Below, piece by piece: positions 4,839 through 50,474 of a stretch of DNA of 64,000 bases. Below the pieces are notes generated by a model. That model worked only from the letters and a program-made list of their open reading frames with translations. It had not been told where the DNA came from and made no database searches. Both the position numbers and the translations under genes were made by a program. The stretch's first letter is position 1. Every line of letters begins with the position of its first letter. Source of the DNA: Candidatus Omnitrophota bacterium (GTDB lineage: Bacteria; Omnitrophota; Gorgyraeia; Duberdicusellales; 4484-171). The stretch is taken from the NCBI GenBank assembly GCA_041652815.1, contig JBAZGN010000001.1:317855-381854 (forward strand), given 5' to 3'.

Positions 4839-4840
4839 AG

Positions 4841-4905
4841 AAAGCTTTCAGCTATCAGTCTTCAGCTCTCAGCTGAAAGCTGACGACTGAAGGCAGAGAG
4901 CTTTA
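4841..4905. repeat. Compound palindrome, CAGCTGAAAGCTG family (B1)
   Basis: aagctttcagctatcagtcttcagc / gctgaaagctgacgactgaaggc arms. Related copies are at 18589, 20403, 39496, 46402 and 63749. Confidence 0.85.
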
Positions 4906-4915
4906 AAGGAGACGT

Positions 4916-8319: not shown

Positions 8320-9222
8320 ATGAATTTACGCGTAAAAGTAGGTAATTTCAACCTTCCAACCCCGGTTATTTGCGCTTCCGGGACTTTTGGCTACGGAGAA
8401 GAGTTAAAAGGCCTGGTTAACTTTAAAAATATCGGCGCAATAACTACCAAAACCATTACTCCGCAGGCGCGTGCCGGAAACCCTCCCCCTAGAATTTATG
8501 AGACAGAATACGGAGTTATCAATTCAATCGGACTGGAAAATCCCGGGCTAGAGGGCTTTCTGGAAGAAAAACTCCCAATGCTTGTTAAGCTGCCCGTAAA
8601 ATCAATCATAAGCGTCGGCGGGTTTTCGCAGGAAGATTACGAGGAAATAGTTAAGCGGCTCGAAGACAAAAAAATAGAAGCTCTTGAAATTAATCTTTCC
8701 TGCCCTAATATCAAAATGAAAAAAATGTTTTCTCAAAACAAAGAGTTAACTTACAATCTAGTGAAGTCTTTACGAGCGCTTACCAAAAAAACTCTGATCA
8801 TAAAAATTACACCGGAAATAGATGATATTGTAGAAATCGCAAAGGCAAGCAAAGAAGCAGGTGCGGATGCACTTTCCCTTGTAAACACTTTCTTTGCTCT
8901 TGCAATAAACATCGAAACAAAAAAGCCTTATTTGGGAAGTATTCATGGCGGCTATTCAAGCCGGGCAATCAAGCCGCTTGCCTTATATAAAATCTGGCAG
9001 GTTTACAAGAGTGTGGATATACCAATTATTGGCGGAGGCGGCATTGAGAATACAAACGATGCCATTGAGTTTTTTCTTGCCGGAGCAACCGCAATAAGCA
9101 TCGGCACGATAAATTTAGTTTATCCAAACCGGGCAACTGATATAGTAAAAGGGCTGAAAGATTACATGAAGAGAAAAAAGATAAGCGATATAAATGAATT
9201 AAGGGGAGGAATGCTCGCATGA
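8320..9222 (+). CDS. pyrD: Dihydroorotate dehydrogenase catalytic subunit (class 1B)
   Basis: NLPTPVICASGTFGYGEE, LSCPN and IIGGGGIE motifs. Confidence 0.9.
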   Translation: MNLRVKVGNFNLPTPVICASGTFGYGEELKGLVNFKNIGAITTKTITPQARAGNPPPRIYETEYGVINSIGLENPGLEGFLEEKLPMLVKLPVKSIISVGGFSQEDYEEIVKRLEDKKIEALEINLSCPNIKMKKMFSQNKELTYNLVKSLRALTKKTLIIKITPEIDDIVEIAKASKEAGADALSLVNTFFALAINIETKKPYLGSIHGGYSSRAIKPLALYKIWQVYKSVDIPIIGGGGIENTNDAIEFFLAGATAISIGTINLVYPNRATDIVKGLKDYMKRKKISDINELRGGMLA

Positions 9223-9959: not shown

Positions 9960-10214
9960 ATGTTAGGTTTTATATTACTTCCAACTTTTATTGTAATGTT
10001 GTGTGTTATTGGATTTCATGAAGGTTGGAAAAAGGTATTGAAAATACTTGGCTTATGGCTAGGCTCCTTTGTTTTAATGGCCGTTATAGAAACAGCCTTT
10101 GGAATAAAAGCTAAAAGCCCCACCTTTAATGTCATCTCTTTATTGCTGTGGGGTTTATGGATTGTTGGGTTAATTATCTATAATGTTAAGGAAGGCCATA
10201 TTGGAAAATTTTGA
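9960..10214 (+). CDS. Small membrane protein (84 aa)
   Basis: Three hydrophobic helices. Confidence 0.4.
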   Translation: MLGFILLPTFIVMLCVIGFHEGWKKVLKILGLWLGSFVLMAVIETAFGIKAKSPTFNVISLLLWGLWIVGLIIYNVKEGHIGKF

Positions 10215-11368: not shown

Positions 11369-11920
11369 ATGCCAAATTATCACCCATATCTTATTTCAAG
11401 TTTACCATATCTTCGGCTCGACATGAAAGCACCGATTGGGTTTAAGCGTTTTTTAGAGCTTTGCAGCGATTCTATACCAAAAGATGAACTCGCGATTTTA
11501 GAAAATTCCCCCGATATTATTAAAGAACAACAGAAATTTTATGTTAAGCCGAAACCCATCGTAAAAGCCTGGCGTGATTTTGAATTTATGCTGCGCAATG
11601 AATTAGTCAAAATTAGGGCAAAACGGCTGCATAAAGATGCCACGTCTTATTTGCGCGCTCCCCTGGATGCGGAATTTTCATCTGCGCATACAATTGGCGA
11701 GATTGCGCGCCAGCCACATCCTCTGGAAACTGAACGTAGGCTTGATGCATTACGTTGGAATAAACTTGATGAATTATGCTTCGGCCATTACTTTGATTTG
11801 GAATTCCTTTTTGTTTACGCCCAGAAATTACTTATCTTGGAACGTTGGGACAGAATTCGCAGCGCAGATAAGCAGAAGTTGCTTAATGGCGTATTGGAAG
11901 CAGTTGCACAACATTTGTGA
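11369..11920 (+). CDS. V-type ATPase operon protein of unknown function (subunit-C-position, DUF2764-like; 183 aa)
   Basis: ATG at 11369, 1 nt after the ntpE stop. The ORF-track 5' extension from 11249 overlaps ntpE and is rejected. Confidence 0.5.
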   Translation: MPNYHPYLISSLPYLRLDMKAPIGFKRFLELCSDSIPKDELAILENSPDIIKEQQKFYVKPKPIVKAWRDFEFMLRNELVKIRAKRLHKDATSYLRAPLDAEFSSAHTIGEIARQPHPLETERRLDALRWNKLDELCFGHYFDLEFLFVYAQKLLILERWDRIRSADKQKLLNGVLEAVAQHL

Positions 11921-11959
11921 CAGATAGCAGATTGCAGATAGTAGATAAAATAAAAACAC

Positions 11960-13714
11960 ATGGATAGAAAAGGAATTATTACAAAAATTGTCGCAAACAT
12001 GGTAAGCGTGCGGGTGGATGGCTCTGTCACCCAGAACGAAGTTGCCTATATTTTGCATGGGCCAGAACGCCTCAAAGCCGAGGTTATCCGCATCCGCGGT
12101 AAAATCGCTGAAACCCAGGTGTATGAATCAACAACAGCCCTTAAGGTTGGAGATGAAGTAGAGCTTACCGGAGAGTTGCTTTCGGTTGAATTAGGCCCTG
12201 GCCTCTTGGGGCAAATTTTCGATGGCCTGCAAAATCCGCTTCCTCAGATAGCAAAAGAATGCGGATTTTTTCTTAAGCGCGGCGTATATAAAAAGGCACT
12301 TGTTGATAGTACAACCTGGGAATTTAATCCTCTGATTAAAAAGGGCGATACTCGCCGGGCGGGAGATAAAATTGGATATGTCAACGAACACATTTTTAAG
12401 CACTACATCATGGTGCCCTTTGGTTTAAAGGGAATACTTAAAATAAATTCCATAGCCGCCAAAGGCACCTATGATCTTACACAGCCTATAGCTACGATTG
12501 AAGAGCCAAACGGAAAAACACACGAAGTATTTTTAAAACAAATCTGGCCGGTAAAAATTCCTATTGAAGCCTACGCTGAAAAAATAAAGCCAATTGAACC
12601 ATTGGTTACTAAAATACGTATCATAGATTCGCTTTTTCCGGTTAGCCTTGGGGGAACTTATTGCGTTCCCGGGCCTTTCGGCGCAGGCAAAACTGTCTTA
12701 CAGCAATTAATCAGCCGGCACGCCGAAGTTGATGTAGTAGTTATTGCTGCCTGCGGCGAACGCGCCGGCGAAGTTGTCGAAACCTTAAAAACTTTTCCGC
12801 AGATAAAAGACCCGCGCACAAATTTACCTTTATCCGAGCGCACAGTTATTATTTGTAATACCAGCTCAATGCCTGTTGCGGCACGTGAATCAAGCGTCTA
12901 TACCGCTGTAACTATTGCCGAATACTACAGGCTTATGGGTTTAAACGTAATGCTTCTGGCTGATTCAACAAGCCGCTGGGCGCAGGCGATGAGAGAAATG
13001 TCCGGCCGGCTAGAAGAGATTCCGGGAGAGGAAGCTTTTCCTGCTTACCTTGAATCTCGGATTGCCTCATTTTATGAGCGAGCAGGTTTAGTTCGTTTAA
13101 ACGACGGCACATTCGGTTCGGTTACAATTGGTGGGACGGTAAGCCCTGCCGGAGGAAATTTCGAAGAACCGGTAACGCAGGCGACATTAAAAGTTGTCGG
13201 AACATTCCATGGCCTGTCACGCGACAGGTCAAACGCAAGAAGGTATCCGGCAATTGACCCGCTAATAAGCTGGAGTAAATATAAAGGTATTATTGAAGAT
13301 AGTTTAATTGCGCGCGGGCATGCAGTGCTTGATAAAAGCCATGAAGTTGAGCAGATGATGAAAGTTATTGGTGAGGAAGGAACCTCTCTGCCGGATTTTG
13401 TAGAATATCTTAAGGGTGAATTTTTCGATTTTGTATATTTGCAGCAGAATGCATTTGACGCGGTGGATGAATCGACAGAAGCGCCCCGCCAAAAATATAT
13501 TTTTGGTTTTATTTATTCAAATATTTTTGAAAAAGATTTTAACTTTATTGATAAAGACGCAGCCAGGCATTTTTTCCATACCCTTCGGCAAGCTTTCAGA
13601 GGATGGAACTCAAGCGAGTTTGAGAGCGAAGAGTTTAGAAGAATAGAAAGAGAAATAGTTAGTGCAATTAGTATAAAAATAACCAAGCTCCAAGATACAA
13701 TAACCAAACAATGA
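11960..13714 (+). CDS. ntpA: V/A-type ATPase catalytic subunit A
   Basis: P-loop GPFGAGKTVL, 584 aa. The last codons and stop codon lie inside repeat E1. Confidence 0.95.
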   Translation: MDRKGIITKIVANMVSVRVDGSVTQNEVAYILHGPERLKAEVIRIRGKIAETQVYESTTALKVGDEVELTGELLSVELGPGLLGQIFDGLQNPLPQIAKECGFFLKRGVYKKALVDSTTWEFNPLIKKGDTRRAGDKIGYVNEHIFKHYIMVPFGLKGILKINSIAAKGTYDLTQPIATIEEPNGKTHEVFLKQIWPVKIPIEAYAEKIKPIEPLVTKIRIIDSLFPVSLGGTYCVPGPFGAGKTVLQQLISRHAEVDVVVIAACGERAGEVVETLKTFPQIKDPRTNLPLSERTVIICNTSSMPVAARESSVYTAVTIAEYYRLMGLNVMLLADSTSRWAQAMREMSGRLEEIPGEEAFPAYLESRIASFYERAGLVRLNDGTFGSVTIGGTVSPAGGNFEEPVTQATLKVVGTFHGLSRDRSNARRYPAIDPLISWSKYKGIIEDSLIARGHAVLDKSHEVEQMMKVIGEEGTSLPDFVEYLKGEFFDFVYLQQNAFDAVDESTEAPRQKYIFGFIYSNIFEKDFNFIDKDAARHFFHTLRQAFRGWNSSEFESEEFRRIEREIVSAISIKITKLQDTITKQ

Positions 13715-13794
13715 CCAATAACCAAATCTCAATAACCAAACAAAAACCAATATCTCCGTTTGGTTATTGGATATTGGAATTTGTTTGGAGCTTG
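13677..13794. repeat. Compound palindrome, AACCAAACAA family (E1), overlapping the ntpA 3' end
   Basis: aaataaccaagctccaagatacaataaccaaacaatgaccaataaccaaat...ccgtttggttattgg. It is >90% identical over ~60 nt to E2 at 33439. Confidence 0.85.
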
Positions 13795-13795
13795 C

Positions 13796-13856
13796 CCGTC
13801 AATTTGCTGTAGGCAAATTGACGAGGTCTCGTCAAATTCAAAGAATTTGACGGATA
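13796..13856. repeat. Second hairpin built from CGTCAATTTG / CAAATTGACG words
   Basis: cgtcaatttgctgtaggcaaattgacgaggtctcgtcaaattcaaagaatttgacgg. Confidence 0.7.
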
Positions 13857-13905
13857 TCTTGATTATTGATTATTTAATCACATTTCAACTTGTATAGAGG
13901 CAAAG

Positions 13906-15213
13906 ATGCATAAAATTTATACAAACATCAGCCAGATTTCCGGAGACGTTATTACTGTAGCTGCTTCCGGCGTAGGCTACATGGAAATTGCCCAAGTTGA
14001 GACACGTCTTGGCATGTCCCTCGCGCAGGTAATAAGGCTTGATGGCGACAAGGTTTATTTACAGGTTTTTGCCGGAAGCAAAGGCATATCAACCGGAGAT
14101 AAAGTCCGTTTCTTGGGGCACTCCATGAATGTATCGAGCGGCGAAAGCTTACTCGGCCGTATATTTAACGGAGTAGGCTTACCTCTGGATAAAGGCCCGG
14201 CTCTCTCAGAAAATATAATTGAAATAGGAGGGCCGCCGGTCAATCCTGTCAAACGCATCATACCCAATAAAATGATACGTACAGGCATACCAATGATAGA
14301 TGTTTTTAATTCGCTGGTTGAATCACAGAAGCTTCCGATTTTTTCTATTGCCGGTGAGCCTTACAACGAAGTGCTTGCGCGAATAGCCACTCAGGCAGAA
14401 ATAGATATTATAGTTTTAGGCGGTATGGGCTTAAAGTATGACGACTATCTTTTTTTTAGAGACAACCTGCGCGCGCGCGGCGCACTTAGCCGCTCCGTAT
14501 TTTTTATTCATACAGCCGCAGACCCTACGGTTGAATGCCTGCTTGTTCCGGACATTGCGCTTGCGGTAGCCGAGGATTTCGCTCTTTCCGGAAAACGCGT
14601 ATTGGTATTGCTTTCTGATATGACTAATTTTTGCGACGCGCTTAAAGAAATATCAATTACAATGGAGCAGGTTCCTTCTAACCGCGGTTATCCCGGAGAC
14701 CTTTACTCCCAGCTGGCAAGCCGGTATGAAAAAGCCGTAGATTTTGATACAGCCGGTTCAATTACAATCCTTGCAGTTACTACAATGCCCGGCGATGATG
14801 TAACGCACCCGGTGCCGGATAATACCGGCTATATCACCGAAGGGCAATTCTATCTTAAGGGTGGGGTTATCGAACCGTTTGGTTCTTTAAGCCGGCTCAA
14901 ACAGCAGGTTAATGGAAAAACCCGCGATGACCACAGAACGATTATGGATACAATGATTCAGCTTTTTGCCAGTTACCGTGAAACGCTGGAGAAGCAGGCA
15001 ATGGGTTTTCATATGAGCGCCTGGGATAAAAAACTCTTGAAATACGGCCTTTTGTTTGAAGAGCGAATGATGTCTTTAAAAGTAAACATACCGCTTGAAG
15101 AAGCTCTTAACTTAGGCTGGGCAATTATGAAAACTTGTTTTTCGCCTGAAGAAACAGGAATACGGAAAGCAATAATTGAGAAGTATTGGGATAAAGCCGA
15201 AATAATAAGTTAG
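13906..15213 (+). CDS. ntpB: V/A-type ATPase subunit B
   Basis: 435 aa, non-catalytic subunit signature ([19 protein letters not shown]). Confidence 0.95.
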
Positions 15214-15318
15214 GTTACGAAGGTTACGAAAGTTACGCAGGTTACGAAGGTTACAACAAACCTTCGATGTTTTAAAAGTAACATTGTAACTTCTCGTAAC
15301 ACCCGTAACCTTCGTAAC
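15212..15318. repeat. Compound palindrome, GGTTACGAAGG family (A1)
   Basis: taggttacgaaggttacgaaagttacgcaggttacgaaggttacaa ... cttctcgtaacacccgtaaccttcgtaac. Copies are at 30582, 39134 and 42995. Confidence 0.9.
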
Positions 15319-15326
15319 AGATACAT

Positions 15327-15947
15327 ATGTCAAAAGTAAAACTAACCAAGGGTGAACTAAAACGGCAGCGCGATAGCTTGCACCAGTTTGAGCGGTTTCT
15401 GCCAACTTTGCAGCTTAAAAAACAGCAGCTGCAGATGGAGATACTTTCTCATTACGGGCTTTTGGAAAAAACAAAACACGAGGAAGAATTAAAACGAAAA
15501 AGCTTTGAAAACTGGCTTTTGCTTTTGGCAGAGCCCCAGGTTGATATTAGCAAATTGTTAACAATAAAAGAAATCAATCTAAGTTCTAAAAATATCGCAG
15601 GCATAGATATTCCTGTGTTTGAATCCTGCGAGTTTAAAGAAATCGAATACGATTTATTCACAACTCCTTTGTGGGTTGACCATGCAATAAGCGCTTTTCG
15701 CGAATTGATTTCTATACGTAGCTCAATTAAAGCCATCGAGGAAAGCATTCTTATTCTGAAGCAGGAATTACGTATTACAACCCAGCGGGTTAATCTCTTT
15801 GAAAAGGTGAAGATTCCCGAAGCAGAAGAAGCAATACGGCTGATTAAAATTTATATCGGCGACCAGCTAACCAATGCTGTAGGCCGCAGCAAAATCGCAA
15901 AGCGTAAAATTGAATACGCGAATGAACGCGAATTTGCACCTTTATAA
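15327..15947 (+). CDS. ntpD: V/A-type ATPase subunit D
   Basis: N-terminus KLTKGELKRQRDSLHQFERFLPTLQLKKQQL. The C-terminal codons and stop lie inside repeat I1. Confidence 0.8.
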   Translation: MSKVKLTKGELKRQRDSLHQFERFLPTLQLKKQQLQMEILSHYGLLEKTKHEEELKRKSFENWLLLLAEPQVDISKLLTIKEINLSSKNIAGIDIPVFESCEFKEIEYDLFTTPLWVDHAISAFRELISIRSSIKAIEESILILKQELRITTQRVNLFEKVKIPEAEEAIRLIKIYIGDQLTNAVGRSKIAKRKIEYANEREFAPL

Positions 15948-16040
15948 TTTGATTTAGGTATAAACGCGAATAAACGCAAATGGAAAAAATGTAAAAATTA
16001 TTCGCGACCATTCGTAAGAATTCGCGAGAATTTGCGTTAA
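15915..16040. repeat. Compound palindrome, CGCGAATA family (I1)
   Basis: gaatacgcgaatgaacgcgaatttgc ... aaacgcgaataaacgcaaatgg ... attcgcgaccattcgtaagaattcgcgagaatttgcg. The paralog is at 56011-56140. Confidence 0.85.
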
Positions 16041-16045
16041 ATCTT

Positions 16046-17809
16046 ATGATAGTTAAAATGAAAAAAGCCACAATTTTGGTGCAGGGTAAAGACGCTAAAA
16101 GCGCTACGCTTAAGCTGCGAAAGCTGGGGTTATTGCACGTAGAACATCAAGCTACCCCCCAAGGGAAAGAGCTTAATGCATTGCAGGAAGAAATAGCATT
16201 TATGAGCGAAGCAATTACAATATTATCTATGCCCAAATACAATAAAAATGTACCAGAGCATAAACAGCTCGAGGGCGATTGGAAAATAACTGCAAAGCAT
16301 ATCGTTGATGTTTATAAACGTATTGACCATCTCAAAGAGTATGGCCGCCGGCTCTCTGCGCAGACAGAAGAATGGGGCAATTGGGGTGATTTTGAGCCGG
16401 AAACAATAAAGGCGCTATCAGCCAAGGGTATTTTCGTAAAGCTTTATCAAATTCCCGTTAAAGAGCTGACGCAGGTTCCGGAAAGCGTGGTAGTTTCGCA
16501 AATAAAAGTTTTAAAAGGCGTTGCGCTTGTTGCGCTTGTGAGCCTTAAAACCATTGAGCTTCCCTTTAAAGAATTAGCATTGCCGAATTTAAGTATTTCA
16601 AAAATGAAAGCGCGTTTAGAAGAAGATGCAAAAGTTTCTTCGGCGCTGTCAGAAGAATTAAGCGGGCTTTGCTTATATAGAGAAAGCTTTTTAAGCATAA
16701 AGAAAAATCTTTTAAAGCAATTTGAATTCGAGGAAGCCTTAAAAGGCATGGGCCAGCACGAAAATATTATGTACTTGACAGGATATAGTCCTTGCGATAA
16801 AACTGATATGCTCTTAGCTGCCGCTAAAGATAATACCTGGGGGATATATGTGCGAGACCCGGATGAGTCAGATAATGTCCCGACACTTATCTCTAATCCG
16901 CGTTGGATATCCATAATTAACCCTGTTTTTAAGTTTATAGAAATTACTCCAGGCTACAAAGAGCTTGATATAAGCCTGTGGTTTTTGATATTCTTTTCCA
17001 TATTCTTCGGCATGCTTATCGGAGACGCCGGTATCGGCGCAATCTTTTGCCTGCTTACTTTTTTAGCGCAAAGAAAGTTTGCCGCAAAAGTTAAGAATAT
17101 CAAAATTTTTGTTCTTTTTTATTTACTGAGCGGTTGCGCTATCGTGTGGGGTGTGGCCAGCGGCACAATTTTCGGGCAGGAGTGGCTCAAAGGATTTATA
17201 AAACCGGTTTTTCCGGTATTACAAAACGAAAAATTCGTGCAAAGTTTATGTTTTTTACTTGGCGCAATCCACTTAAGCATAGCCCATTCCTGGCGCGCAA
17301 TATTGAAGGCCCCTTCGCTTAAGGCTTTATCCGACATCGGCTGGATTTTAATTCTATGGGGTGGGTTTTTTCTGGCCAAAACCCTGGTTCTTGCGGACGC
17401 ATTTCCAGATTTTGGCAAATGGCTATTTTTATCCGGAACGCTTTTGGTTATAGTATTTTCCGAACCGAATAGAAATATTTTGAAAGCCATCAGCAAAGGC
17501 CTGGGCGCATTCGCCCTAAGTGCCGTTAATAGTTTTACCGATATAGTTTCGTATGTGAGGCTTTTTGCGGTTGGCCTTGCTACAGTTGCCGTTGCCGATG
17601 CTTTTAACAATATGGCTATGGGGTTGTGGGGCAACGGAATTCTTGCAGCTTTCCTGGGCGCATTTATACTTTTTATTGGCCAGGCGTTAAACGTTATTTT
17701 AGGTCCTATCGCTGTTTTGGTGCACGGGGTAAGGCTTAATGTTCTTGAGTTTTGCAATCATATAGATCTTAAATGGTCAGGATTTAGCTATAAACCGTTA
17801 CATGAATAA
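16046..17809 (+). CDS. ntpI: V/A-type ATPase subunit I (membrane a-subunit)
   Basis: 587 aa with a hydrophilic N-terminal half, then 7-8 TM helices with a conserved Arg-containing helix. Confidence 0.85.
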   Translation: MIVKMKKATILVQGKDAKSATLKLRKLGLLHVEHQATPQGKELNALQEEIAFMSEAITILSMPKYNKNVPEHKQLEGDWKITAKHIVDVYKRIDHLKEYGRRLSAQTEEWGNWGDFEPETIKALSAKGIFVKLYQIPVKELTQVPESVVVSQIKVLKGVALVALVSLKTIELPFKELALPNLSISKMKARLEEDAKVSSALSEELSGLCLYRESFLSIKKNLLKQFEFEEALKGMGQHENIMYLTGYSPCDKTDMLLAAAKDNTWGIYVRDPDESDNVPTLISNPRWISIINPVFKFIEITPGYKELDISLWFLIFFSIFFGMLIGDAGIGAIFCLLTFLAQRKFAAKVKNIKIFVLFYLLSGCAIVWGVASGTIFGQEWLKGFIKPVFPVLQNEKFVQSLCFLLGAIHLSIAHSWRAILKAPSLKALSDIGWILILWGGFFLAKTLVLADAFPDFGKWLFLSGTLLVIVFSEPNRNILKAISKGLGAFALSAVNSFTDIVSYVRLFAVGLATVAVADAFNNMAMGLWGNGILAAFLGAFILFIGQALNVILGPIAVLVHGVRLNVLEFCNHIDLKWSGFSYKPLHE

Positions 17810-17819
17810 TTTTATGACA

Positions 17820-17948
17820 AACTCTAAACCCGAAATCCTAAACTCTAAACAAACTCGAAACTACAAATTACAAATTCCAAACGTTTTGAGTTTAGAGTTT
17901 CGAGTTTATAGTTTATTTAGAGTTTCGAGTTTAGTGTTTAGGGTTTAT
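17820..17948. repeat. Compound palindrome, AACTCTAAAC family (C1)
   Basis: aactctaaacccgaaatcctaaactctaaacaaactcgaaac ... gtttagagtttcgagtttagtgtttagggtt. The copy is at 23709. Confidence 0.9.
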
Positions 17949-17964
17949 CTTAAAGGGAGGAGTT

Positions 17965-18423
17965 ATGGAAGCAACTAACTTTTTGATACAGTTTAAAGAT
18001 TTAGGGGCAGCTGCAGTGCTTGCGCTTAGCGCCGCAGGTTCTGCTCTTGGCGCGGGAGTAGCCGGGCTTGCCGCAATAGGCGCGTGGAAGAAGAGTTTCG
18101 CTCAAAATAAAAACGCCTCTTTCGCTATTGTTGCATTTGTCGGCGCGCCCCTTACTCAGACTATTTACGGAATGATTGTAATGAATAAAATCGTCGAACT
18201 CTCCTTGAAAGGAGTTTATGTATGGAGCGTCGGTATATTTTGCGGTTTAGCCATAGGCCTTTCTGCGTTATGGCAGGGAAAGGCTGCGGCAGTTGCCTGT
18301 GACGCATTGGGTGAAACCGAAAAAGGCTTTGCGAATTATATAATAGTTTTAGGAATCATTGAAACGGTTGCTCTATTTGTAATGGCATTTTCTCTCGGAT
18401 TGTTAGGCAGATTGGCAGGATAG
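17965..18423 (+). CDS. ntpK: V/A-type ATPase proteolipid subunit K (4-TM c-subunit)
   Basis: 152 aa, Ala/Gly-rich TM hairpins. SD GGGAGG lies upstream. Confidence 0.8.
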   Translation: MEATNFLIQFKDLGAAAVLALSAAGSALGAGVAGLAAIGAWKKSFAQNKNASFAIVAFVGAPLTQTIYGMIVMNKIVELSLKGVYVWSVGIFCGLAIGLSALWQGKAAAVACDALGETEKGFANYIIVLGIIETVALFVMAFSLGLLGRLAG

Positions 18424-18508
18424 GTTTTGTTTTTTAAGGCACTTCGAAAATATTTTCTCAGTGCCGCTAAAAAACAAGGAATAACCCTGGATAAAGTTCT
18501 TTTTTAGC

Positions 18509-18582
18509 GGGCGCATAGCTCAGCTGGTTAGAGCACTTCTTTTACAAGGAAGGGGTCTAAGGTTCGAATCCTTATGCGCCCA
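18509..18582 (+). tRNA. tRNA-Val (anticodon TAC)
   Basis: Cloverleaf folded by hand: acceptor GGGCGCA/TGCGCCC, D-arm GCTC-AGCTGGTTA-GAGC, anticodon stem CTTCT/GGAAG with loop TTTACAA, T-arm TAAGG-TTCGAAT-CCTTA, discriminator A. CCA is not encoded. Confidence 0.9.
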
Positions 18583-18588
18583 TATAAT

Positions 18589-18677
18589 AGCTTTCAGCCA
18601 TCAGCTATCAGCAATCAGCCCCTCCCAAGGGGCGCCCTTGAAGGGTGGCTGAAGACTGACGACTGATAGCTGAAAGC
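18589..18677. repeat. Compound palindrome, CAGCTGAAAGCTG family (B2), with a GC-rich core cccaaggggcgcccttgaaggg
   Basis: agctttcagccatcagctatcagcaatcagcc...ggctgaagactgacgactgatagctgaaagc. Confidence 0.9.
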
Positions 18678-18685
18678 GTAAAAAA

Positions 18686-20398
18686 ATGGATTTACAAACA
18701 CTCAGGCATTCTTGTTCGCACATTATGGCCAGCGCGGTTAAGAAAATTTATCCGCAGGCAAAATTAGGTATTGGCCCGGCTATTGAAGGAGGCTTTTACT
18801 ATGATTTTGAAATCCCCGGCGGCATAAAGGAAGAAGATTTAGGTAGAATTGAACAATTAATGCGCGAAGAAATCAACAAAAAATTACCTTTCGTTCATGA
18901 AGATTGGGAAAGCGAAAAGGCGATTGATTTTTTTAAATCTAACGGCGAAACTTTTAAGGTTGAGTTAATAAAAGATTTGGCGCAACCCAAAGTTTCTATA
19001 TATAAGCACGGTGATTTTGTAGATTTGTGCAAGGGCCCGCATATTGCCTCAACCAAAGAGGCAAAATATTTCAAAATACTTTCAACTTCAGGCGCTTACT
19101 GGAAAGGCATAGACTCAAATCCGCAGCTCGTGCGTATTTACGGTACGGTATTTTTTACCAAAGAAGAATTAGAAGCTCATCTAAAGCTTCTGGAAGAGGC
19201 TAAGCTAAGAGATCACAGGACGCTCGGACGTGAGCTCGGGCTTTTTGAATTATTTTACAATGAAGCCGGAGCAGGCCTTGTGTTTTATTTGCCGGACGGC
19301 GCGCGCTTAAAAAGAATAATCGAAGACTGGGAAATCAAAGAGCATTACCGGCGCGGATATAAAATGGTGCAAACTCCGCACATAATGGATAAGAAATTAT
19401 GGCAGAAAAGCGGCCACCTTGATTACTATCAGGATTATATGTATCCGGTAACCAAGGAAAATCAGGAATTTATTTTAAAGCCGATGAATTGCCCGGGGCA
19501 TATACTGATTTATAAAGCAAGCCTTCGCAGCTGGAGAGAATTGCCTTTAAGAATGTTTGAACTGGGCACGGTTTATCGTTATGAAAAAAGCGGAGTGTTA
19601 CACGGTTTACTTCGGGTAAGAGGCTTTACCCAGGATGACGCGCATATATTTTGCAGAAAGGAAGATTTATACTCCGAAATAGAAGGAGTTTTGGATTTTG
19701 TAAAAGAAGCAATGAATAAATTCGGTTTTATTGATTTCACCGCGGAATTAAGCACGCGGCCGGAAAAATTTATCGGAGAAAAAGAAAATTGGGATGCCGC
19801 CGAAGGTATCTTGGAAGAAGTGCTTAAGAAAAAGAAGTTTAATTACAAAATAAATCCGGGTGACGGAGCTTTTTACGGCCCCAAGATAGACATAAAACTT
19901 AAAGATGCTCTAAATAGAGAGTGGCAATGCGCAACTGTCCAGCTGGATTATGCTATTCCTGAAAGATTCGATTTAACCTATCGTGCTCCTGATGGGAAAG
20001 ATACACGCGTGGTTATGATTCACCGCGTAATTTTAGGAAGCCTGGAGAGGTTTATCGCAACATTGATTGAGCACTACGCAGGTAAATTTCCTCTCTGGCT
20101 TTCTCCGGTTCAGGTGAGTGTTTTAAATATTACGGAAGATGTTGAGGCTTACGCTAAAGAAATAAAAGATATTTTAGAAAAAGAAAATATTCGCGTGGAA
20201 GTAGATTTACGTAATGAAACTTTGCAGAGAAAAATAAGAGAAAAAGAAATGCGTAAGGTGCCATATATGGTTATAGTCGGGAAGAAAGAACGCGATAGCA
20301 AACAGATTTCGGTACGGGCGAGAGGTATGCAGAATTTAGGCAATATGGATATGGAAAGCTTTTTGAATATCTTGAAAAAAGAAATAAAGGGAGCCTAG
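18686..20398 (+). CDS. thrS: Threonyl-tRNA synthetase (short form lacking the N-terminal TGS domain)
   Basis: 570 aa. It starts at the N2 editing-domain motif RHSCSHIMA. Class II motifs and the anticodon-binding domain are present. Confidence 0.9.
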   Translation: MDLQTLRHSCSHIMASAVKKIYPQAKLGIGPAIEGGFYYDFEIPGGIKEEDLGRIEQLMREEINKKLPFVHEDWESEKAIDFFKSNGETFKVELIKDLAQPKVSIYKHGDFVDLCKGPHIASTKEAKYFKILSTSGAYWKGIDSNPQLVRIYGTVFFTKEELEAHLKLLEEAKLRDHRTLGRELGLFELFYNEAGAGLVFYLPDGARLKRIIEDWEIKEHYRRGYKMVQTPHIMDKKLWQKSGHLDYYQDYMYPVTKENQEFILKPMNCPGHILIYKASLRSWRELPLRMFELGTVYRYEKSGVLHGLLRVRGFTQDDAHIFCRKEDLYSEIEGVLDFVKEAMNKFGFIDFTAELSTRPEKFIGEKENWDAAEGILEEVLKKKKFNYKINPGDGAFYGPKIDIKLKDALNREWQCATVQLDYAIPERFDLTYRAPDGKDTRVVMIHRVILGSLERFIATLIEHYAGKFPLWLSPVQVSVLNITEDVEAYAKEIKDILEKENIRVEVDLRNETLQRKIREKEMRKVPYMVIVGKKERDSKQISVRARGMQNLGNMDMESFLNILKKEIKGA

Positions 20399-20402
20399 TA
20401 TG

Positions 20403-20467
20403 GCTCTCAGCTTTCAGGCGTCAGCTGCCAGCCGCTGAAAGCTGAAGACCGATAGCTGACAGCTTTT
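20403..20467. repeat. Compound palindrome, CAGCTGAAAGCTG family (B3)
   Basis: gctctcagctttcaggcgtcagctgccagccgctgaaagctgaagaccgatagctgacagc. Confidence 0.85.
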
Positions 20468-20486
20468 AAAAAGGAGGTACGAGCGA

Positions 20487-21995: not shown

Positions 21996-22002
21996 TAAAA
22001 GA

Positions 22003-22078
22003 AACCAGAAACCAGAGTACAGAAACCAGAAAAAATGTTTTTTATTATCTGGTTTCTGGTTACTGGTTTCTGTAAACT
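22003..22078. repeat. Compound palindrome, GAAACCAGA family (single copy in window)
   Basis: agaaaccagaaaccagagtacagaaaccagaaaaaatg...ctggtttctggttactggtttctg. Confidence 0.85.
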
Positions 22079-23708: not shown

Positions 23709-23880
23709 AAACTCTAAACCCGAAATCCTAAACTCCCTGCCTGCCGGCCCTCGGCACAGCCTAAGGCGAGCAGGCAGGAAGACAAACTCGAAACTATAAA
23801 TCACAAACCCTAAACGCTTCGAGTTTGGAGTTTCGTGTTTGTGATTTGTTTAGAGTTTCGAGTTCAGTGTTTAGAGTTAT
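23709..23880. repeat. Compound palindrome, AACTCTAAAC family (C2), with a nested GC-rich hairpin (cctgcctgccggccctcggcacagcctaaggcgagcaggcaggaag)
   Basis: The first 24 nt are identical to C1. The nested core is absent from C1. Confidence 0.9.
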
Positions 23881-25395: not shown

Positions 25396-25926
25396 ATGTC
25401 ACAGGTCACAGGTCACAGGTCACAGGTCAAAATTTTTATAAAGTTTATATTAATTATCATTTCAACCTGTTACCTGTTACCGGTTACGTGCTATTCTCAG
25501 ATTTCAAGTTCTGACTTAATCAACAATGCCAAGCAATATGACGGACAAGAGATAGTTTATACCGGAGAAGTTATCGGTGACGTGATGATAAGAGGAAAAT
25601 TTGCCTGGATAAATGTAAATGATACAAAAAACGCAATAGGAATATGGCTCTCCAAAGATTTCGCTAAAGAAATTCTCTACACCGGCAGTTATAGGGCCAA
25701 AGGTGACATTGTTGAGGTAAAAGGAAAGTTTAATCGTGCCTGCACTGAGCACGGAGGAGATTTAGACATACACGCATCTACTTTACAGGTTATCCAAAAA
25801 GGCGCAAATGTGGATGAAGTAATTTCCCCGCGTAAAATTAAGGTAGCAATTACATTTCTTATAATTTGTTTGACATTAACGGTTATTTATTTTATAAGAT
25901 TAGGCTATGGTTTTAAACACAGATGA
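25396..25926 (+). CDS. Hypothetical exported/membrane-anchored protein; start codon unresolved because the annotated 5' end runs through repeat L3
   Basis: Hydrophobic N-terminal region encoded by the repeat itself, a C-terminal TM helix, no recognisable domain. Confidence 0.4.
   Translation: MSQVTGHRSQVKIFIKFILIIISTCYLLPVTCYSQISSSDLINNAKQYDGQEIVYTGEVIGDVMIRGKFAWINVNDTKNAIGIWLSKDFAKEILYTGSYRAKGDIVEVKGKFNRACTEHGGDLDIHASTLQVIQKGANVDEVISPRKIKVAITFLIICLTLTVIYFIRLGYGFKHR
25397..25495. repeat. Compound imperfect palindrome, GTCACAG x4 facing CCTGTTACC repeats
   Basis: gtcacaggtcacaggtcacaggtca ... cctgttacctgttaccggttacgtg. Confidence 0.8.
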
Positions 25927-25960
25927 TCGCAGATTGAAAAGCAGATGATTACAGATTTGG
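25918..25960. repeat. CACAGAT-family left arm (outer arm of the nested element around F1)
   Basis: cacagatgatcgcagattgaaaagcagatgattacagattt. The partner arm ctatctgtgatttcttatctgtgccaatctgtg is at 26107-26142. Confidence 0.8.
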
Positions 25961-25974
25961 CATATTGTCATACG

Positions 25975-26105
25975 GCTATGGGTTGCGCCACTCGTTACGT
26001 CTATCGTTAATCGGTTGCGTTTTAAATGACGATAGACGATTAACGTAACCGAGACGAGCTCGCCCGCCTCCGGCGGACAGGCAACCGCAACCGATTTACG
26101 CAACC
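25975..26105. repeat. Compound palindrome, GCGGTTGCG / CGATAGACG family (F1), nested inside CACAGAT arms
   Basis: ggttgcgccactcgttacgtctatcgttaatcggttgcg...cgatagacgattaacgtaaccgagacgagc...caaccgcaaccg. Confidence 0.85.
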
Positions 26106-26106
26106 G

Positions 26107-26142
26107 CTATCTGTGATTTCTTATCTGTGCCAATCTGTGTGG
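26107..26142. repeat. CACAGAT-family right arm (ATCTGTG x3)
   Basis: ctatctgtgatttcttatctgtgccaatctgtg. Confidence 0.8.
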
Positions 26143-26157
26143 AAAAAAAGTTTTCCA

Positions 26158-27189: not shown

Positions 27190-27194
27190 TGGAG

Positions 27195-27292
27195 AATACG
27201 AATTAATACTAGATGCTTGATGCTCGATGCCAGATGTTGTGAAAAATAAAATAACGAGCATCTAGTATCGGGCATCTAGCATCCCTCGCGGA
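27195..27292. repeat. Compound palindrome, GCATCTAGATGC family
   Basis: actagatgcttgatgctcgatgccagatg...gagcatctagtatcgggcatctagcatc. Confidence 0.85.
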
Positions 27293-27303
27293 TTTTAAAT
27301 ATT

Positions 27304-29286: not shown

Positions 29287-29289
29287 ACG

Positions 29290-29325
29290 CAGATTAGCGC
29301 AGATTTGAACGGATTAGCACAGATA
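29290..29325. repeat. CACAGAT-family left arm (outer arm around F2)
   Basis: cagattagcgcagatttgaacggattagcacagat. Confidence 0.8.
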
Positions 29326-29331
29326 AAGGGT

Positions 29332-29460
29332 GCGTCTATCGGTTGCGGTTACGCAGCTCGTCTCGTCATACGTTAATCGGTTGTGTTAAAGAAAGTATTT
29401 AAAATAAAGACGATAGACGTAAAACGCAACCGACACGAGCATCGCAACCGTATGACGAAT
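29332..29460. repeat. Compound palindrome, GCGGTTGCG family (F2), nested inside CACAGAT arms
   Basis: gtctatcggttgcggttacgcagctcgtctcgtcatacgttaatcggttg...cgatagacgtaaaacgcaaccgacacgagcatcgcaaccg. Confidence 0.85.
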
Positions 29461-29510
29461 ATCATCTGTGATCATCTGCTTTCCAATCCGTGATCATCTG
29501 TGTAAAAAAG
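29461..29510. repeat. CACAGAT-family right arm (ATCTGTG x3)
   Basis: atcatctgtgatcatctgctttccaatccgtgatcatctgtg. Confidence 0.85.
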
Positions 29511-29518
29511 GAGGAAGC

Positions 29519-30576: not shown

Positions 30577-30581
30577 TTTTA

Positions 30582-30688
30582 GGTTACGAATGTTACGAAA
30601 GTTACGCAGGTTACGAAGGTTACAATAAATCTAACTGTTTTTAAATGTAACTTTCGTAACTTCCCGTAACATCCGTAACCTTCGTAAC
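30582..30688. repeat. Compound palindrome, GGTTACGAAGG family (A2), between convergent genes
   Basis: taggttacgaatgttacgaaagttacgcaggttacgaaggttacaa...cttcccgtaacatccgtaaccttcgtaac. Confidence 0.9.
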
Positions 30689-30689
30689 A

Positions 30690-31667: not shown

Positions 31668-31677
31668 ATTTTCCCGT

Positions 31678-31771
31678 ATAGAAGCGGATTCCCGCGGAGC
31701 TAAACGCGGATGTACGCACGGTAATCGGTTTGCATTTATCCGCGTTGATATCCGCGGCCATCCGCTTCTAT
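31678..31771. repeat. Compound palindrome, CCGCGGATA family (K1), with perfect 12-bp terminal inverted repeats ATAGAAGCGGAT / ATCCGCTTCTAT
   Basis: Seen directly. The paralog K2 at 37790-37883 has identical termini. Confidence 0.9.
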
Positions 31772-31892
31772 TTCTTCAAAAAACACTTGACTAAAAAACC
31801 TTTAATAGTAAAATTTTACTATTAAAATTTAACTAAAGCACCTCAGCTTTTAAGGAATGCCTAGTGTGCGCTTTCCGTGTAAGGAGGACCAT

Positions 31893-33416
31893 ATGAATGT
31901 AAAAGAATTACTTATAAACCAAGCTTCGTTATTTCCTCAAAAAAGCGCTTTTATCTTTGAAGGCAAAGAAACAACCTTTTTGCAACTCAAAGATGCCGCA
32001 TTTAAGATTGCCAATTATTTTACAAGGCAAGGCATAAAAAAGCCAGATAAAATTGCTATTTTTACCCCAAACACTCCGGAAGCTATTTGTGCGCAGATGG
32101 CGGCATATTCTATAGGTGCAACCTTGATACCTTTTGATTACATGCTCACAGAAAATGAGATTATTCATTTCTTAAACCATAGCGAAGCAAAAGTATTAAT
32201 CATGCAGCCGAGAAAAGACATAAACGTATTAAACATCCGGGAAAACTGTTATTCTGTAAAATATATAATAACCTGTAAAGAGCGCCTTGCGGATTGCGAT
32301 TTCCTTGATGATCTTTTGGCAGAGGAAAGTAGTGAAGCTCCGATTCCGCAATCTTTTGATAAAGACCTCGCGGCAATATTTTATACCTCAGGCTCAACTG
32401 GCCACCCTAAGGGCGTAATGCTTAGCTATAAACAGTTTGATAATCCGGTTGATACAATAAACCATTTTTTAGGGGTTTCGGAAAACGATGTTTATTGTAC
32501 CGGCGGCATACCTTTTTCCCATGTGGGCGGGCTTAATTACCTGCTTTTAATGATTCGTTTTGCATCAACCGTTATTGTAATGGGAAGGTTTCATCCGATG
32601 GAATTTTTAAAAAATATAGAAAGATATAAAGTCACGATATTTTGCATAGTGCCTTCGATGTATGTTGCGATTTTATCTCTAAAAGAATACGAGAGGTTTA
32701 ACCTTTCGTCTTTAAGGTATGCAGTTGTTTTTGGTGCGCCTTCTTCGCCTCTTTTGCTTAAGAAATTTCACAGGTCATGCCCTAAAGCAATTGTTTTAAA
32801 CGGTTGGGGTATGACTGAAACCGCCGCTCCGAATACTTTTTCGCCCCCGGACGAGCATAAGATATCCAGCATAGGGAAATTCGGATTTCGTATGCAGGCA
32901 AAGATAATCGATGAGGAAGGAAAATCTTTGTTATATGGAGAACAAGGCGAATTATTAGTCAGCGGAGAAGGTGTTACCGGCGGCTATTACAGAGAGCCGA
33001 CCTTAAGCTCAGATGCTTTTTGGGGAGAAGGGTGGCTGCGTACCGGCGATATTGCTTATTTTGGAAAAGACGGGCTGATATATCTTGCCGGGAGAAAAAA
33101 GGACATGATAAAAGTTGCCGGTGAGATAGTTTTTTCCTCGGAAGTTGAAGAAAAAATACAGCTCTATCCAAAGGTTAAAGAAGTTGCTGTCATAGGTGTT
33201 GCCGATGAATTAAGAGGAGAAGTGCCGAAAGCTTTTATTGTTGCAAAAGAATCTGAAGTGATAGATGCTCAGGAGCTAAGGGATTTTTTAAAAGAGCATC
33301 TGGCTCATTTTAAAATTCCGCATTATTTTGAATTTATAAAAGAACTTCCAAAAAATAGAGTGGGAAAAATCGACAAACAGGCACTTAAGAAAACACAGAT
33401 TAGCACAGATTTGTAA
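31893..33416 (+). CDS. AMP-dependent synthetase/ligase (acyl-CoA or aryl-CoA ligase)
   Basis: YTSGSTGHPKGV AMP-binding motif, C-terminal KIDKQALKK. SD AAGGAGG before ATG 31893. Confidence 0.85.
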   Translation: MNVKELLINQASLFPQKSAFIFEGKETTFLQLKDAAFKIANYFTRQGIKKPDKIAIFTPNTPEAICAQMAAYSIGATLIPFDYMLTENEIIHFLNHSEAKVLIMQPRKDINVLNIRENCYSVKYIITCKERLADCDFLDDLLAEESSEAPIPQSFDKDLAAIFYTSGSTGHPKGVMLSYKQFDNPVDTINHFLGVSENDVYCTGGIPFSHVGGLNYLLLMIRFASTVIVMGRFHPMEFLKNIERYKVTIFCIVPSMYVAILSLKEYERFNLSSLRYAVVFGAPSSPLLLKKFHRSCPKAIVLNGWGMTETAAPNTFSPPDEHKISSIGKFGFRMQAKIIDEEGKSLLYGEQGELLVSGEGVTGGYYREPTLSSDAFWGEGWLRTGDIAYFGKDGLIYLAGRKKDMIKVAGEIVFSSEVEEKIQLYPKVKEVAVIGVADELRGEVPKAFIVAKESEVIDAQELRDFLKEHLAHFKIPHYFEFIKELPKNRVGKIDKQALKKTQISTDL

Positions 33417-33436
33417 GCGAATGAGCACAGATTGCA
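33395..33436. repeat. CACAGAT-family left arm (outer arm around E2)
   Basis: cacagattagcacagatttgtaagcgaatgagcacagattgc. Confidence 0.8.
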
Positions 33437-33438
33437 AT

Positions 33439-33588
33439 AAATAACCAAGTTCCAAGATACAATAACCAAACAATGGCCAATAACCAAATTTCAATAACCA
33501 AACAAAAAAATAACAAATCCGTTTGGTTATTGGGTATTGAATATTGTAATTTGTTTGGAACTTGTATCTTGGTTATTGGTTATTTCTA
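33439..33588. repeat. Compound palindrome, AACCAAACAA family (E2), nested inside CACAGAT arms
   Basis: aaataaccaagttccaagatacaataaccaaacaatggccaataaccaaat...ccgtttggttattgggtattgaatattgtaatttgtttggaacttgtatcttggttattggttatt. Confidence 0.9.
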
Positions 33589-33589
33589 A

Positions 33590-33640
33590 AATATCTGTGG
33601 TTATCTGTGATTTTTTATCTGCGATCATCTGTGTATAAAA
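33590..33640. repeat. CACAGAT-family right arm
   Basis: atatctgtggttatctgtgattttttatctgcgatcatctgtg. Confidence 0.8.
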
Positions 33641-33652
33641 AGGAGTAAAACA

Positions 33653-36545: not shown

Positions 36546-37793
36546 ATGAGACGAGTAGTCATAACCGGCATTGGCGTAATCTGTGCAGCTGGCGAGGATA
36601 AAAACACTTTTTACGATAATATTGTCGCCGGTAAACCCTTTATTGAAAGAGTAGAGAATTTTGATGTAAGTTTATTTGTGTCAAAAATAGCTTCACAGGA
36701 TTTAGGCTTTGACCCGCTCAAATTTGGCATAAAAGACCACCAGCGTATGGATAGATATGTCCAATTTGGTATTGCCGCGGCAAAACAGGCAGTTGAAGAC
36801 AGCCACATTGATTTTAATAAAATAAACAGAAAAAAATGCGGTGTAATTTTAGCAAACGCAATTTGCGGCACGCGTTTTATGGAGGAGGAATTCCTTCTTG
36901 TAACTGACTGGGGAAAGAGGCCAATCGATCCGCGTAAAGGCCGGCCTTATCTTTATGATGCGGCAATGTTTAATACGCCAAGCGCAGAAATCGGAGCAAT
37001 TTATCATACGCAAGGGCTTAATTGCACGGTTTCTACCGGTTGCACTGCTGCTACAGATTCTTTAGGATTTTCTTTTGAACTTATCCGCGAAGGCAGGCAG
37101 GATATAATTATTGCCGGTGGTACTGAAGCGCCGGTTTGCCCGATTACTTTTGGAGCTTTTGACGTGGTAAATGTTTTGGCAAAAAATAACGATGAACCGC
37201 ATAAAGCCAGCCGGCCTTTCGATAATAAAAGAAACGGTTTTGTAATTTCTGAAGGCGCGGGCGTTGTAGTGCTTGAAGAATTAGAGCACGCAAAAAAGCG
37301 CGGCGCGCATATTTACGGAGAATTGGTTGGTTACGGTACAAGCTGTAATGCCTTTCATATGACGGATTTACCTGAGGACGGCGAAGCGATGGAGCGCTGC
37401 ATCAAAGATGCGATGAAAGACGCAGGAGTTAAAAATGAAGATATAGACTATATAAATACGCATGGCTCATCAACCAGGCAAAATGACGTTTTTGAGACAA
37501 ATGCTTACAAGGCAGTGTTCGGTGATTATGCTTACAAAATTCCGATAAGCTCTATAAAATCAATGATTGGCCATCCTTTGGCGGCAGCCAATGCTGTAGA
37601 GAGTGTTTTATGCGCGATGATTTTTGAAAAAGGATATTTGCCCCCCACGATAAATCAGGAAGAGCCAGACCCAAAATGCGATTTGGATTATATTCCAAAC
37701 GTGAAAAGACAATATATGCCTAATTACATATTAAAAACAAGCAGCGGATTTTCCGGAATACATTCGTCTATTATATTTAAGAAATATAAATAG
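36546..37793 (+). CDS. Beta-ketoacyl synthase, KS-alpha (FabF-like, catalytically complete)
   Basis: Cys in STGCTAATDS, His in INTHGSSTRQND, His in SMIGHPLAAANAVE. The stop codon TAG lies inside the terminus of repeat K2. Confidence 0.85.
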   Translation: MRRVVITGIGVICAAGEDKNTFYDNIVAGKPFIERVENFDVSLFVSKIASQDLGFDPLKFGIKDHQRMDRYVQFGIAAAKQAVEDSHIDFNKINRKKCGVILANAICGTRFMEEEFLLVTDWGKRPIDPRKGRPYLYDAAMFNTPSAEIGAIYHTQGLNCTVSTGCTAATDSLGFSFELIREGRQDIIIAGGTEAPVCPITFGAFDVVNVLAKNNDEPHKASRPFDNKRNGFVISEGAGVVVLEELEHAKKRGAHIYGELVGYGTSCNAFHMTDLPEDGEAMERCIKDAMKDAGVKNEDIDYINTHGSSTRQNDVFETNAYKAVFGDYAYKIPISSIKSMIGHPLAAANAVESVLCAMIFEKGYLPPTINQEEPDPKCDLDYIPNVKRQYMPNYILKTSSGFSGIHSSIIFKKYK

Positions 37794-37883: not shown

Positions 37884-37897
37884 AGTAAGGAGCTTAA

Positions 37898-43928: not shown

Positions 43929-43963
43929 AGAGTAGCAAGTAAAGAGTAGAGAGAGGAGGTATC

Positions 43964-46463: not shown

Positions 46464-46464
46464 T

Positions 46465-50459: not shown

Positions 50460-50474
50460 GGCTAATCCAGGAAT

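Follow-up and report, generated by a model that had tools for sequence, protein, structure and literature searches.

Palindromic repeats as the probable source of C-termini and stop codons in a V-ATPase operon of Omnitrophota

[quoted passage not shown] Repeats that extend gene 3' ends or are inserted in frame, including the Rickettsia palindromic elements (RPEs), have been reviewed by Delihas (PMC3184786). Repetitive extragenic palindromic sequences (REPs) are described as G+C-rich units of 20-40 nt with a GTAG or CGTC tag and with RAYT transposases (PMC3733652), and the termini of rRNA intervening sequences (IVSs) form a long stem that is cut by RNase III (PMC4990558). Here, we describe a comparable case in a metagenome-assembled genome of Candidatus Omnitrophota, in a 64,000-nt stretch (the window, whose coordinates are used throughout) that holds the V/A-ATPase operon ntpA-ntpB-ntpD-ntpI-ntpK. 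The four operon junctions are spacers of 191, 113, 98 and 155 nt, and an imperfect palindrome occupies each of them. We conclude that the ends and stop codons of NtpA and NtpD are very probably now read from mobile palindromes that inserted at once-overlapping junctions. Four results shown below are the base of this reading: the tails are homologous to intergenic paralogues, tails and elements are absent in close relatives, the junctions overlapped ancestrally, and unrelated proteins carry the same tail from one of the families (E). Since the 2023 survey of Omnitrophota genomes never uses the words repeat, palindrome or intergenic (PMC10066038), such elements appear to be undescribed so far in this phylum.

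The ends of ntpA, ntpD and ntpB

A first-pass annotation of the window, made from the letters alone, had proposed that palindromic elements encode the last residues and stop codons of ntpA and ntpD; the sequences and coordinates that it quoted for these two gene ends are present and translate as it said. The C-terminal peptides are LQDTITKQ (NtpA) and IEYANEREFAPL (NtpD), and both proteins are 100% identical to proteins of an Omnitrophica bacterium that carry the annotation of subunit A and subunit D of V-type ATP synthase. The paralogous element copies at 33439 (E2) and 56011 (I2), which had been called intergenic, do lie in spacers (33417-33652 and 56010-56144).

For ntpA, the E-family element (E1) had been placed from position 13677. 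We found that in a four-way alignment of E1, E2 and two metagenome copies, similarity sets in exactly at this position, with AAATAACC. Hence, the last 38 nt of ntpA (12 codons plus TGA) are element. E1 (13677-13746) is 96% identical to E2 (33439-33508) over 70 nt. Its left arm (13677-13741) is CAA-rich with a 7-nt period and is followed by a loop (13742-13757) and a right arm (13758-13794 plus 13855-13875), which is split by a nested 60-nt palindrome (13795-13854); without this insert, the right arm and its counterpart in E2 match. Hence the start given in the first pass stands, and the complete palindrome with the smaller one nested in it had been missed there. The RNA fold of the E1 region is far better than those of its shuffles (Table 1), and the nested GTCAATTTGC element has no further copy within the window.

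The tails of NtpA and NtpD were aligned with those of orthologues, as the first pass had suggested, and the terminal residues proved to be lineage-specific and to coincide with the repeats. A scan of genome contigs gave no relative closer than 84%, and the closer relatives came from contigs encoding orthologous proteins. The nearest NtpA orthologues (84-91% identity) end in SAIAEKTILKNA or close variants, with EKTILKNA as the tail in the nearest element-free relatives, and QDTITKQ is present in none of the 119 other NtpA orthologues. The E insertion is private to this genome; the sister contig L087 retains the ancestral tail, EKTLLRNA. The new tails of NtpA and NtpD are replacements of old ones of similar length, not extensions, at termini that vary naturally: 33 residues follow the WNS motif in the window NtpA versus an orthologue median of 31, and 11 residues follow AKRKI in the window NtpD versus a median of 10. 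Matches of NtpA to solved A-subunit structures stop at residue 568 or before, and NtpD had no match to solved structures at E<=1e-10. We hold it highly likely that the NtpA tail derives from an insertion.

For ntpD, the element (I1) indeed begins within the gene, at 15916 by repeat alignment and not at 15915 as first given, and it overlaps ntpD by about 24-32 nt. I1 (15916-15987) is 74% identical to I2 (56011-56082), and the two are collinear over ~135 nt including a non-repetitive centre (local score 106 versus 16 ± 2.4 for shuffles; z = 36.9). The RNA fold of I1 is only marginally above shuffles (z = -2.2). Hence, I1 is decayed. Other NtpD orthologues end in KRKIE-x-YA-Q/E-x-N-S-Y-D-S or alike (AYAQSNSYDS in the nearest element-free relatives), and NEREF is found among them only in P0122 (87% identity), whose tail is YANEREFTPL. 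The P0122 locus (L086) has an orthologous I element at the same junction (local alignment with I1, z = 39.8), so that no repeat-free orthologue with the same C-terminus was found for either protein. Since the I insertion is common to this sister lineage, it is older than the E insertion and predates the split from the L086 lineage.

How much of the NtpD tail belongs to the element is a narrower matter. Many orthologues carry E-x-Y-A, and L088 (P0140, tail EYANA before the stop) has GAATACGCGAA in common with ntpD and no recognisable I element; hence, E-Y-A in NtpD is probably ancestral, and about eight residues (NEREFAPL) can be securely attributed to the element. The L088 spacer was itself considered as a decayed I element and rejected (z = 2.3, 11 nt only). 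With this trimming, the first-pass view that both C-termini are insertion-derived tails is supported, and for NtpD we consider it likely.

The stop codon of ntpB had been overlooked. This TAG (15211-15213) lies within the conserved TTAGGTTACGAA end of a third repeat family, the GTTACGAA family, which has four copies in the window. All four copies begin with TTAG (paralogue starts at about 30581, 39134 and 42995), and the RNA fold of the element past ntpB is again far better than shuffles (Table 1). The NtpB tail is AEIIS versus AEVLD in relatives, that is, its last three residues are IIS versus VLD.

Near relatives have kept the empty sites. In contigs L083 (NtpA 88% identical) and L085 (86%), the stop of ntpA and the start of ntpB overlap (ATGCATAA), as do the stop of ntpD and the start of ntpI (ATGATAGTTAA), and the ntpB-ntpD gap is 3 nt; no palindrome was found at the V-ATPase junctions of these two contigs. 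Across 80 further Omnitrophota loci, the modal junction is -8 for A-B and -4 for D-I. Hence, overlap is the ancestral state.

Other palindrome families have hit these junctions independently in related genomes, which the first pass had not seen. In L081 and L082, a GTATCACGTATCAGGTAAC-type palindrome encodes the NtpA tail EYHVSGNK and its stop, and a second copy lies past ntpB (8700-8770 and 10110-10190). L087 (1805-1903) has a palindrome of the GATGCTCGA family past ntpA, a family with a window copy at 27190-27303, and L086 (365-530) has a TAAAC-family palindrome past ntpB. Palindromic spacers at A-B or D-I are also found in several relatives that are more distant. The I- and GTTACGAA-family motifs themselves were found across the 203 fetched loci only in the L086 orthologue and one other match.

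Table 1. Genes and palindromic elements of the V-ATPase operon, with the paralogous copies of E and I (window coordinates; z, comparison with shuffles)
Feature	Position	Strand	Description
ntpA	11960-13714	+	V/A-ATPase catalytic subunit A, 584 aa; ends in SAISIKITKLQDTITKQ and stop; final 12 codons (KITKLQDTITKQ) and TGA within E1
E1	13677-13875	+	full E-family palindrome; RNA folding z -7.7
nested 60-nt double hairpin	13795-13854	+	GTCAATTTGC/GCAAATTGAC type, in right arm of E1; single copy in window
ntpB	13906-15213	+	subunit B, 435 aa; TAG stop 15211-15213 within TTAG terminus of GTTACGAA element
GTTACGAA-family palindrome	15210-15318	+	occupies ntpB-ntpD junction; 9-nt period; RNA folding z -7.9
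ntpD	15327-15947	+	subunit D, 206 aa; ends in KRKIEYANEREFAPL and stop; final 8-10 codons ((YA)NEREFAPL) and TAA within I1
I1	15916-16042	+	I family (ACGCGAAT motif, ~10-nt period), partly decayed; orthologous to L086 element
ntpI	16046-17809	+	subunit I, 587 aa; start ATGATAGTTAA includes ancestral ntpD stop
TAAAC-family palindrome	17811-17954	+	begins 1 nt past ntpI stop, occupies ntpI-ntpK junction; 7-nt period; inverted-repeat z 16
ntpK	17965-18423	+	last operon gene listed
E2	33439-33585	+	intact intergenic E paralogue, in centre of CACAGAT-family palindrome 33386-33640
I2	56011-56144	+	intergenic I paralogue; 1 nt past stop of open reading frame 54519-56009, reaches next start codon; inverted-repeat z 6.1

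Palindrome families in the window and in other metagenomes

The operon is not the only part of the window with such elements. Among 39 spacers of 35-300 nt, 26 have an inverted repeat whose strength exceeds that of all shuffles; examples of palindromic spacers are 4839-4915, 17810-17964, 20399-20486, 30577-30689, 31677-31773, 37790-37884, 46403-46464 and 50472-50606. At least 12 palindrome families are present, each with 2-8 copies within the 64 kb. The arms consist of degenerate units in tandem, with a period of 7 nt in the E, TAAAC, TCAGC, AATCACAA and GATGC families, 9 nt in the GTTACGAA family and ~10 nt in the I, CACAGAT and CGCGGAT families. E1, E2, I1, I2 and the GTTACGAA copies are imperfect palindromes of 110-200 nt without open reading frames (ORFs), with A+T-rich arms of 35-70 nt and with the termini AAATAACC and GGTTATTT (E), ACGCGAAT and TTAAAT (I) and TTAGGTTACG and CGTAAC (third pair).

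The elements fit closely between genes. At ~17 junctions, the left arm begins -38 to +4 nt relative to the upstream stop, and the right arm usually stops 8-24 nt ahead of the next start, which leaves room only for the Shine-Dalgarno sequence. Beyond the operon, the stop or final codons of several further ORFs, such as those ending at 25926, 33416, 36469, 37793 and 61213, also lie in a left arm. Four GTG starts called mechanically (34823, 58065, 61272 and 26113) lie within the right arm of the preceding palindrome (with ATCTGTGATCATC); either the true starts are further downstream or right arms overlap 5' ends too.

Nesting is common (33386-33640, 25910-26146, 29287-29512, 18620-18647, 23740-23790, 43085-43120 and 60325-60345). 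GGTTGCG-type palindromes sit within CGCAGAT ones, E2 is central in a CACAGAT palindrome, and small G+C-rich hairpins are nested within TCAGC, TAAAC, GTTACGAA and GTCGATAG elements. This nesting suggests insertion into hairpin loops or centres. Arrays with one arm and no inverted partner were seen at 11921-11959 (CAGATAGCAGATTGCAGATAG), 21996-22034 (AGAAACCAGAAACCAG) and 43929-43963 (AGAGTAGCAAGTAAAGAGTAG). A tRNA gene (18509-18582) lies between ntpK and the next gene, and directly after it comes a palindrome of the TCAGC family in which a G+C-rich hairpin is nested. At 723-1060, a ~25-nt direct repeat (CATATTCGCACGAATAAGGGTAATA), unlike the palindromes in kind, flanks an ORF resembling a small winged-helix (ArsR-like) regulator.

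With the Rfam 15 covariance models (gathering and E-value thresholds), no palindrome matched a family; only the tRNA reached its gathering threshold, and the sub-threshold hits were to plant and animal microRNA hairpins and amount to generic hairpin matches. An intrinsic-terminator scan of 11900-18700 flagged no outer stem, and the inner hairpin 15245-15266 alone has a weak T tract.

The E family reaches far beyond this genome. Among the matches listed, its left-arm 20-mer is in >115 metagenome contigs from many projects, the flanks of E-bearing contigs run from 29% to 63% G+C, and about half of the matches are full palindromes (median 130 nt). The 20-mer had no match in viral contigs, and the single viral match to the GTTACGAA family (L204) was set aside as a chance match in low-complexity coding sequence. 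The E termini (AAATAACC and GGTTATTT) contain a TAA, and for 48 full copies with adequate flanks, the stop of an ORF of at least 80 codons falls inside the element in 14 on the side of the CAA arm and in 10 on the other side.

The E-encoded tail of NtpA is also seen at the end of unrelated proteins. We found tails of the type ITK(I/H)QDTITKQ, followed by the stop, on ribosomal protein L21 (contig L123, 883-1296) and on an AMP-binding acyl-CoA synthetase (contig L172, 1580-3310), with the frame, the TGA and the 38-nt overlap identical to those of ntpA. Half-copies (CAA arm only) also lie in frame inside proteins: in valyl-tRNA synthetase (ValRS; L107, 130-2286, and L141, 9881-12133), with the same insert site in two different genes, and in PheT (L162, 1279-3450), TsaD (L112, 1780-2934), YceG/MltG (L130, 10111-11187) and RecG (L122, 3-1274). 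These inserts read NNQDTITKQ or QDTRYNNQT.

Copies in rRNA genes complete the range. Full E copies are inside large-subunit rRNA genes in L173, L114, L102 and L121 (four copies) and inside small-subunit rRNA genes in L187 and L203; L121 and L173 also hold group I introns. In L089 (573-1080), L120 (1964-2480), L125 (14-477) and L180 (700-1143), a ~115-aa PF05635-family gene has an E-like arm on either side, with family matches of E = 1e-18 for L089 and 8e-18 for L180; the window copies are without such an ORF. PF05635 is the family of the 23S rRNA intervening sequence protein, which is a four-helix bundle, and the copies that carry it may be the long form of the E element. Because its copies lie in rRNA genes, at gene junctions and at in-frame protein sites, the E family behaves at once like an rRNA IVS, an intergenic MITE or REP, and an RPE-like coding insert.

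Origin of the new gene ends

We propose that the ancestor had a compact operon, in which ntpA and ntpB would have met at ATGCATAA, ntpB and ntpD at a 3-nt gap and ntpD and ntpI at ATGATAGTTAA. Mobile elements of 100-200 nt, dispersed, non-coding and imperfectly palindromic, would have entered every junction. Because no spacer existed, each insertion that survived would lie in the final codons of the gene upstream and spare the start of the gene downstream. The upstream gene would then be translated on into the left arm up to the first in-frame stop, so that E1 would supply 12 new NtpA residues (KITKLQDTITKQ) and TGA, I1 ~8 new NtpD residues (NEREFAPL) and TAA, and the GTTACGAA element the TAG of NtpB. 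Such insertions would have been tolerated because old, naturally variable tails were swapped for others of similar length.

The elements themselves would be selfish or neutral, and their apparent stop-to-start preference may reflect purifying selection against insertions elsewhere in a gene-dense genome. The exact placement would not need targeting, because an insertion would survive only where it leaves the next start untouched and alters no more than a few dispensable C-terminal residues. In the transcript, the stem would juxtapose the stop codon and the next start (0-38 nt lie between stem base and stop, and 8-30 nt between stem base and start), and terminating ribosomes would melt the stem base and thereby keep partial translational coupling. 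If rRNA intervening sequences, which belong to one sequence family with them, are a guide, the stems are likely to be cut by RNase III, and such a cut at ntpA or ntpD would take away the stop codon.

Several observations weigh against this reading. A visual check of E1, E2 and ~10 metagenome copies revealed no target-site duplication and no shared flank, so mobility rests on the distribution of copies; no transposase was found, and the gene carried by the longer E relatives, of the PF05635 four-helix bundle, is not a known transposase. Downstream of E1, there is no significant relic of the ntpA 3' end beyond the bases of the ntpB start (z = -1). The left junction of I1 is ambiguous, with ancestral TACGCG overlapping the element motif ACGCGAAT (microhomology), and L088 carries GAATACGCGAA though its spacer shows no significant similarity to I. 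Finally, the repeated independent hits at these junctions and the exact fit between stop and Shine-Dalgarno sequence could reflect targeting or functional selection. A relic of the ancestral ntpD 3' end downstream of I1 likewise extends only 3-4 nt past the bases of the ntpI start; displaced 3'-end relics were dropped as evidence of insertion, as nothing significant was found beyond the start of the next gene.

The best-surviving alternative is that the palindromes are kept as intercistronic RNA devices, that is, as hairpins for stability or processing, RNase III sites, or tuners of coupling and attenuation that set the A3B3D1... stoichiometry, with the altered C-termini as a side effect. It is compatible with an origin by insertion and disputes the neutrality alone. 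The very stable RNA structures of E1 and the GTTACGAA element agree with it, as do the exact fit of the elements from stop codon to Shine-Dalgarno sequence or start codon, the independent gain of elements at the same V-ATPase junctions in several lineages, and the E-superfamily members in rRNA, where such elements are excised by RNase III (PMC4990558). However, the nearest relatives run the same operon without any spacers, different lineages carry unrelated families at one and the same junction, the arms of I1 and its L086 orthologue have decayed, and the elements neither resemble intrinsic terminators nor match an Rfam family. We consider maintenance as RNA devices unlikely.

A bolder proposal would join several of these strands. 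E, and perhaps other periodic palindromes, would form a horizontally spreading superfamily of IVS-like elements, excisable by RNase III, that occupies rRNA helices, stop-to-start junctions and, as half-copies, coding sequences in many uncultivated bacteria, with the PF05635 protein as an accessory or mobility factor. In an operon like this one, cleavage of the stem, which contains the stop codon, would leave the upstream cistron without its stop and lead to non-stop decay, and the elements would thus dial subunit stoichiometry and be more than passengers. This combination is speculative, and we consider it unlikely.

The elements could instead have formed locally, by short-motif slippage and hairpin-templated copying, and not as inserted mobile units. 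Arms built as degenerate tandem arrays with periods of 7, 9 or 10 nt would suit such an origin, and the DNA that encoded the ancestral NtpD tail (TACGCGCAAA) is similar to the I motif ACGCGAAT. However, E1 is near-identical not only to E2 but also to metagenome copies in unrelated contexts, which effectively refutes local formation for E1, and the collinearity of I1 and I2 through their non-repetitive centre argues against it for I; we regard it as very improbable. That the tails are ancestral coding sequence, with E2 and I2 as duplicated gene 3' ends, or that the junctions are assembly chimeras, is scarcely credible: the shared sequence itself, and nothing more, speaks for it, whereas what is shared forms the left arm of a palindrome that its right arm, further downstream, makes complete, orthologues are without the tails, the matches listed place the E arm in other contexts in >115 metagenome contigs, and the independent assembly L086 has the I element at the same junction.

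Comparison with known systems

Insertion of mobile palindromes, as we read these junctions, makes the operon a natural experiment, in which an essential, translationally coupled operon was invaded at every junction while close relatives keep the empty sites. It points to selfish DNA as a means by which core enzymes exchange their C-termini and stop codons in a gene-dense, uncultivated phylum, and it calls for caution in annotation, since a tail confined to one lineage may come from a repeat in such genomes. As rRNA intervening sequence, carrier of PF05635 and in-frame insert in aminoacyl-tRNA synthetases and other core proteins, the E family joins three phenomena that are usually kept apart, and this link offers a handle on the role of the PF05635 protein and on the spread of IVSs.

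The elements resemble the QMITEs as small palindromic non-coding repeats that lie over gene 3' ends, here by 38 nt (ntpA) and ~24-32 nt (ntpD). Unlike the QMITEs, with which they have no sequence kinship, they have arms with a 7-10-nt period, neither direct repeats nor a target-site duplication could be detected, and they sit in a formerly coupled operon of another phylum. They share with MITEs in general the terminal inverted repeats, the small size, the lack of coding sequence and multiple dispersed copies in this and other genomes; the flanking target-site duplication of MITEs was not seen on visual inspection.

With the RPEs, they share that palindromic repeats are translated as parts of proteins and in some cases extend or replace 3' ends (PMC3184786), and E half-copies are in frame elsewhere; in this window, however, C-terminal tails alone are affected. 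No sign of homology to the RPE families arose, though no test aimed at it was made. Translation of a repeat within a conserved protein without disruption, as in RPEs, is found for NtpA, NtpD, L21 and the acyl-CoA synthetase, and internally for ValRS, PheT, TsaD, YceG and RecG. The likeness to rRNA IVSs lies in the long terminal-repeat stem, in the copies of the E 20-mer inside large- and small-subunit rRNA in six fetched contigs and in the PF05635 ORF of longer relatives. In contrast, the window copies are in mRNA junctions, and classical IVSs are described as rRNA-specific and not dispersed genome-wide.

Like REPs and their composites (REPIN and BIME), the elements are abundant extragenic palindromes that follow directly after stop codons, are often nested or clustered and form RNA hairpins. 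Unlike REP units, they have periodic, A+T-rich arms of 35-70 nt without a GTAG or CGTC tag and so are not REPs by that definition, and no RAYT gene was seen within the 64-kb window. The heptamer arrays of cyanobacteria (STRR) and Beggiatoaceae (TAACTGA, PMC4679880) are likewise intergenic arrays of 7-nt units near gene boundaries, but those are direct arrays of one exact heptamer, whereas here degenerate units are mirrored into a palindrome.

Hence, repeat-derived C-termini as such are already known from the Coxiella QMITEs and the RPEs, and the present locus is a fresh case in a phylum unstudied in this respect. Less ordinary are the saturation of a formerly overlapping, essential operon whose empty sites are kept in near relatives, the arms built as periodic arrays and the breadth of niches held by the E family.

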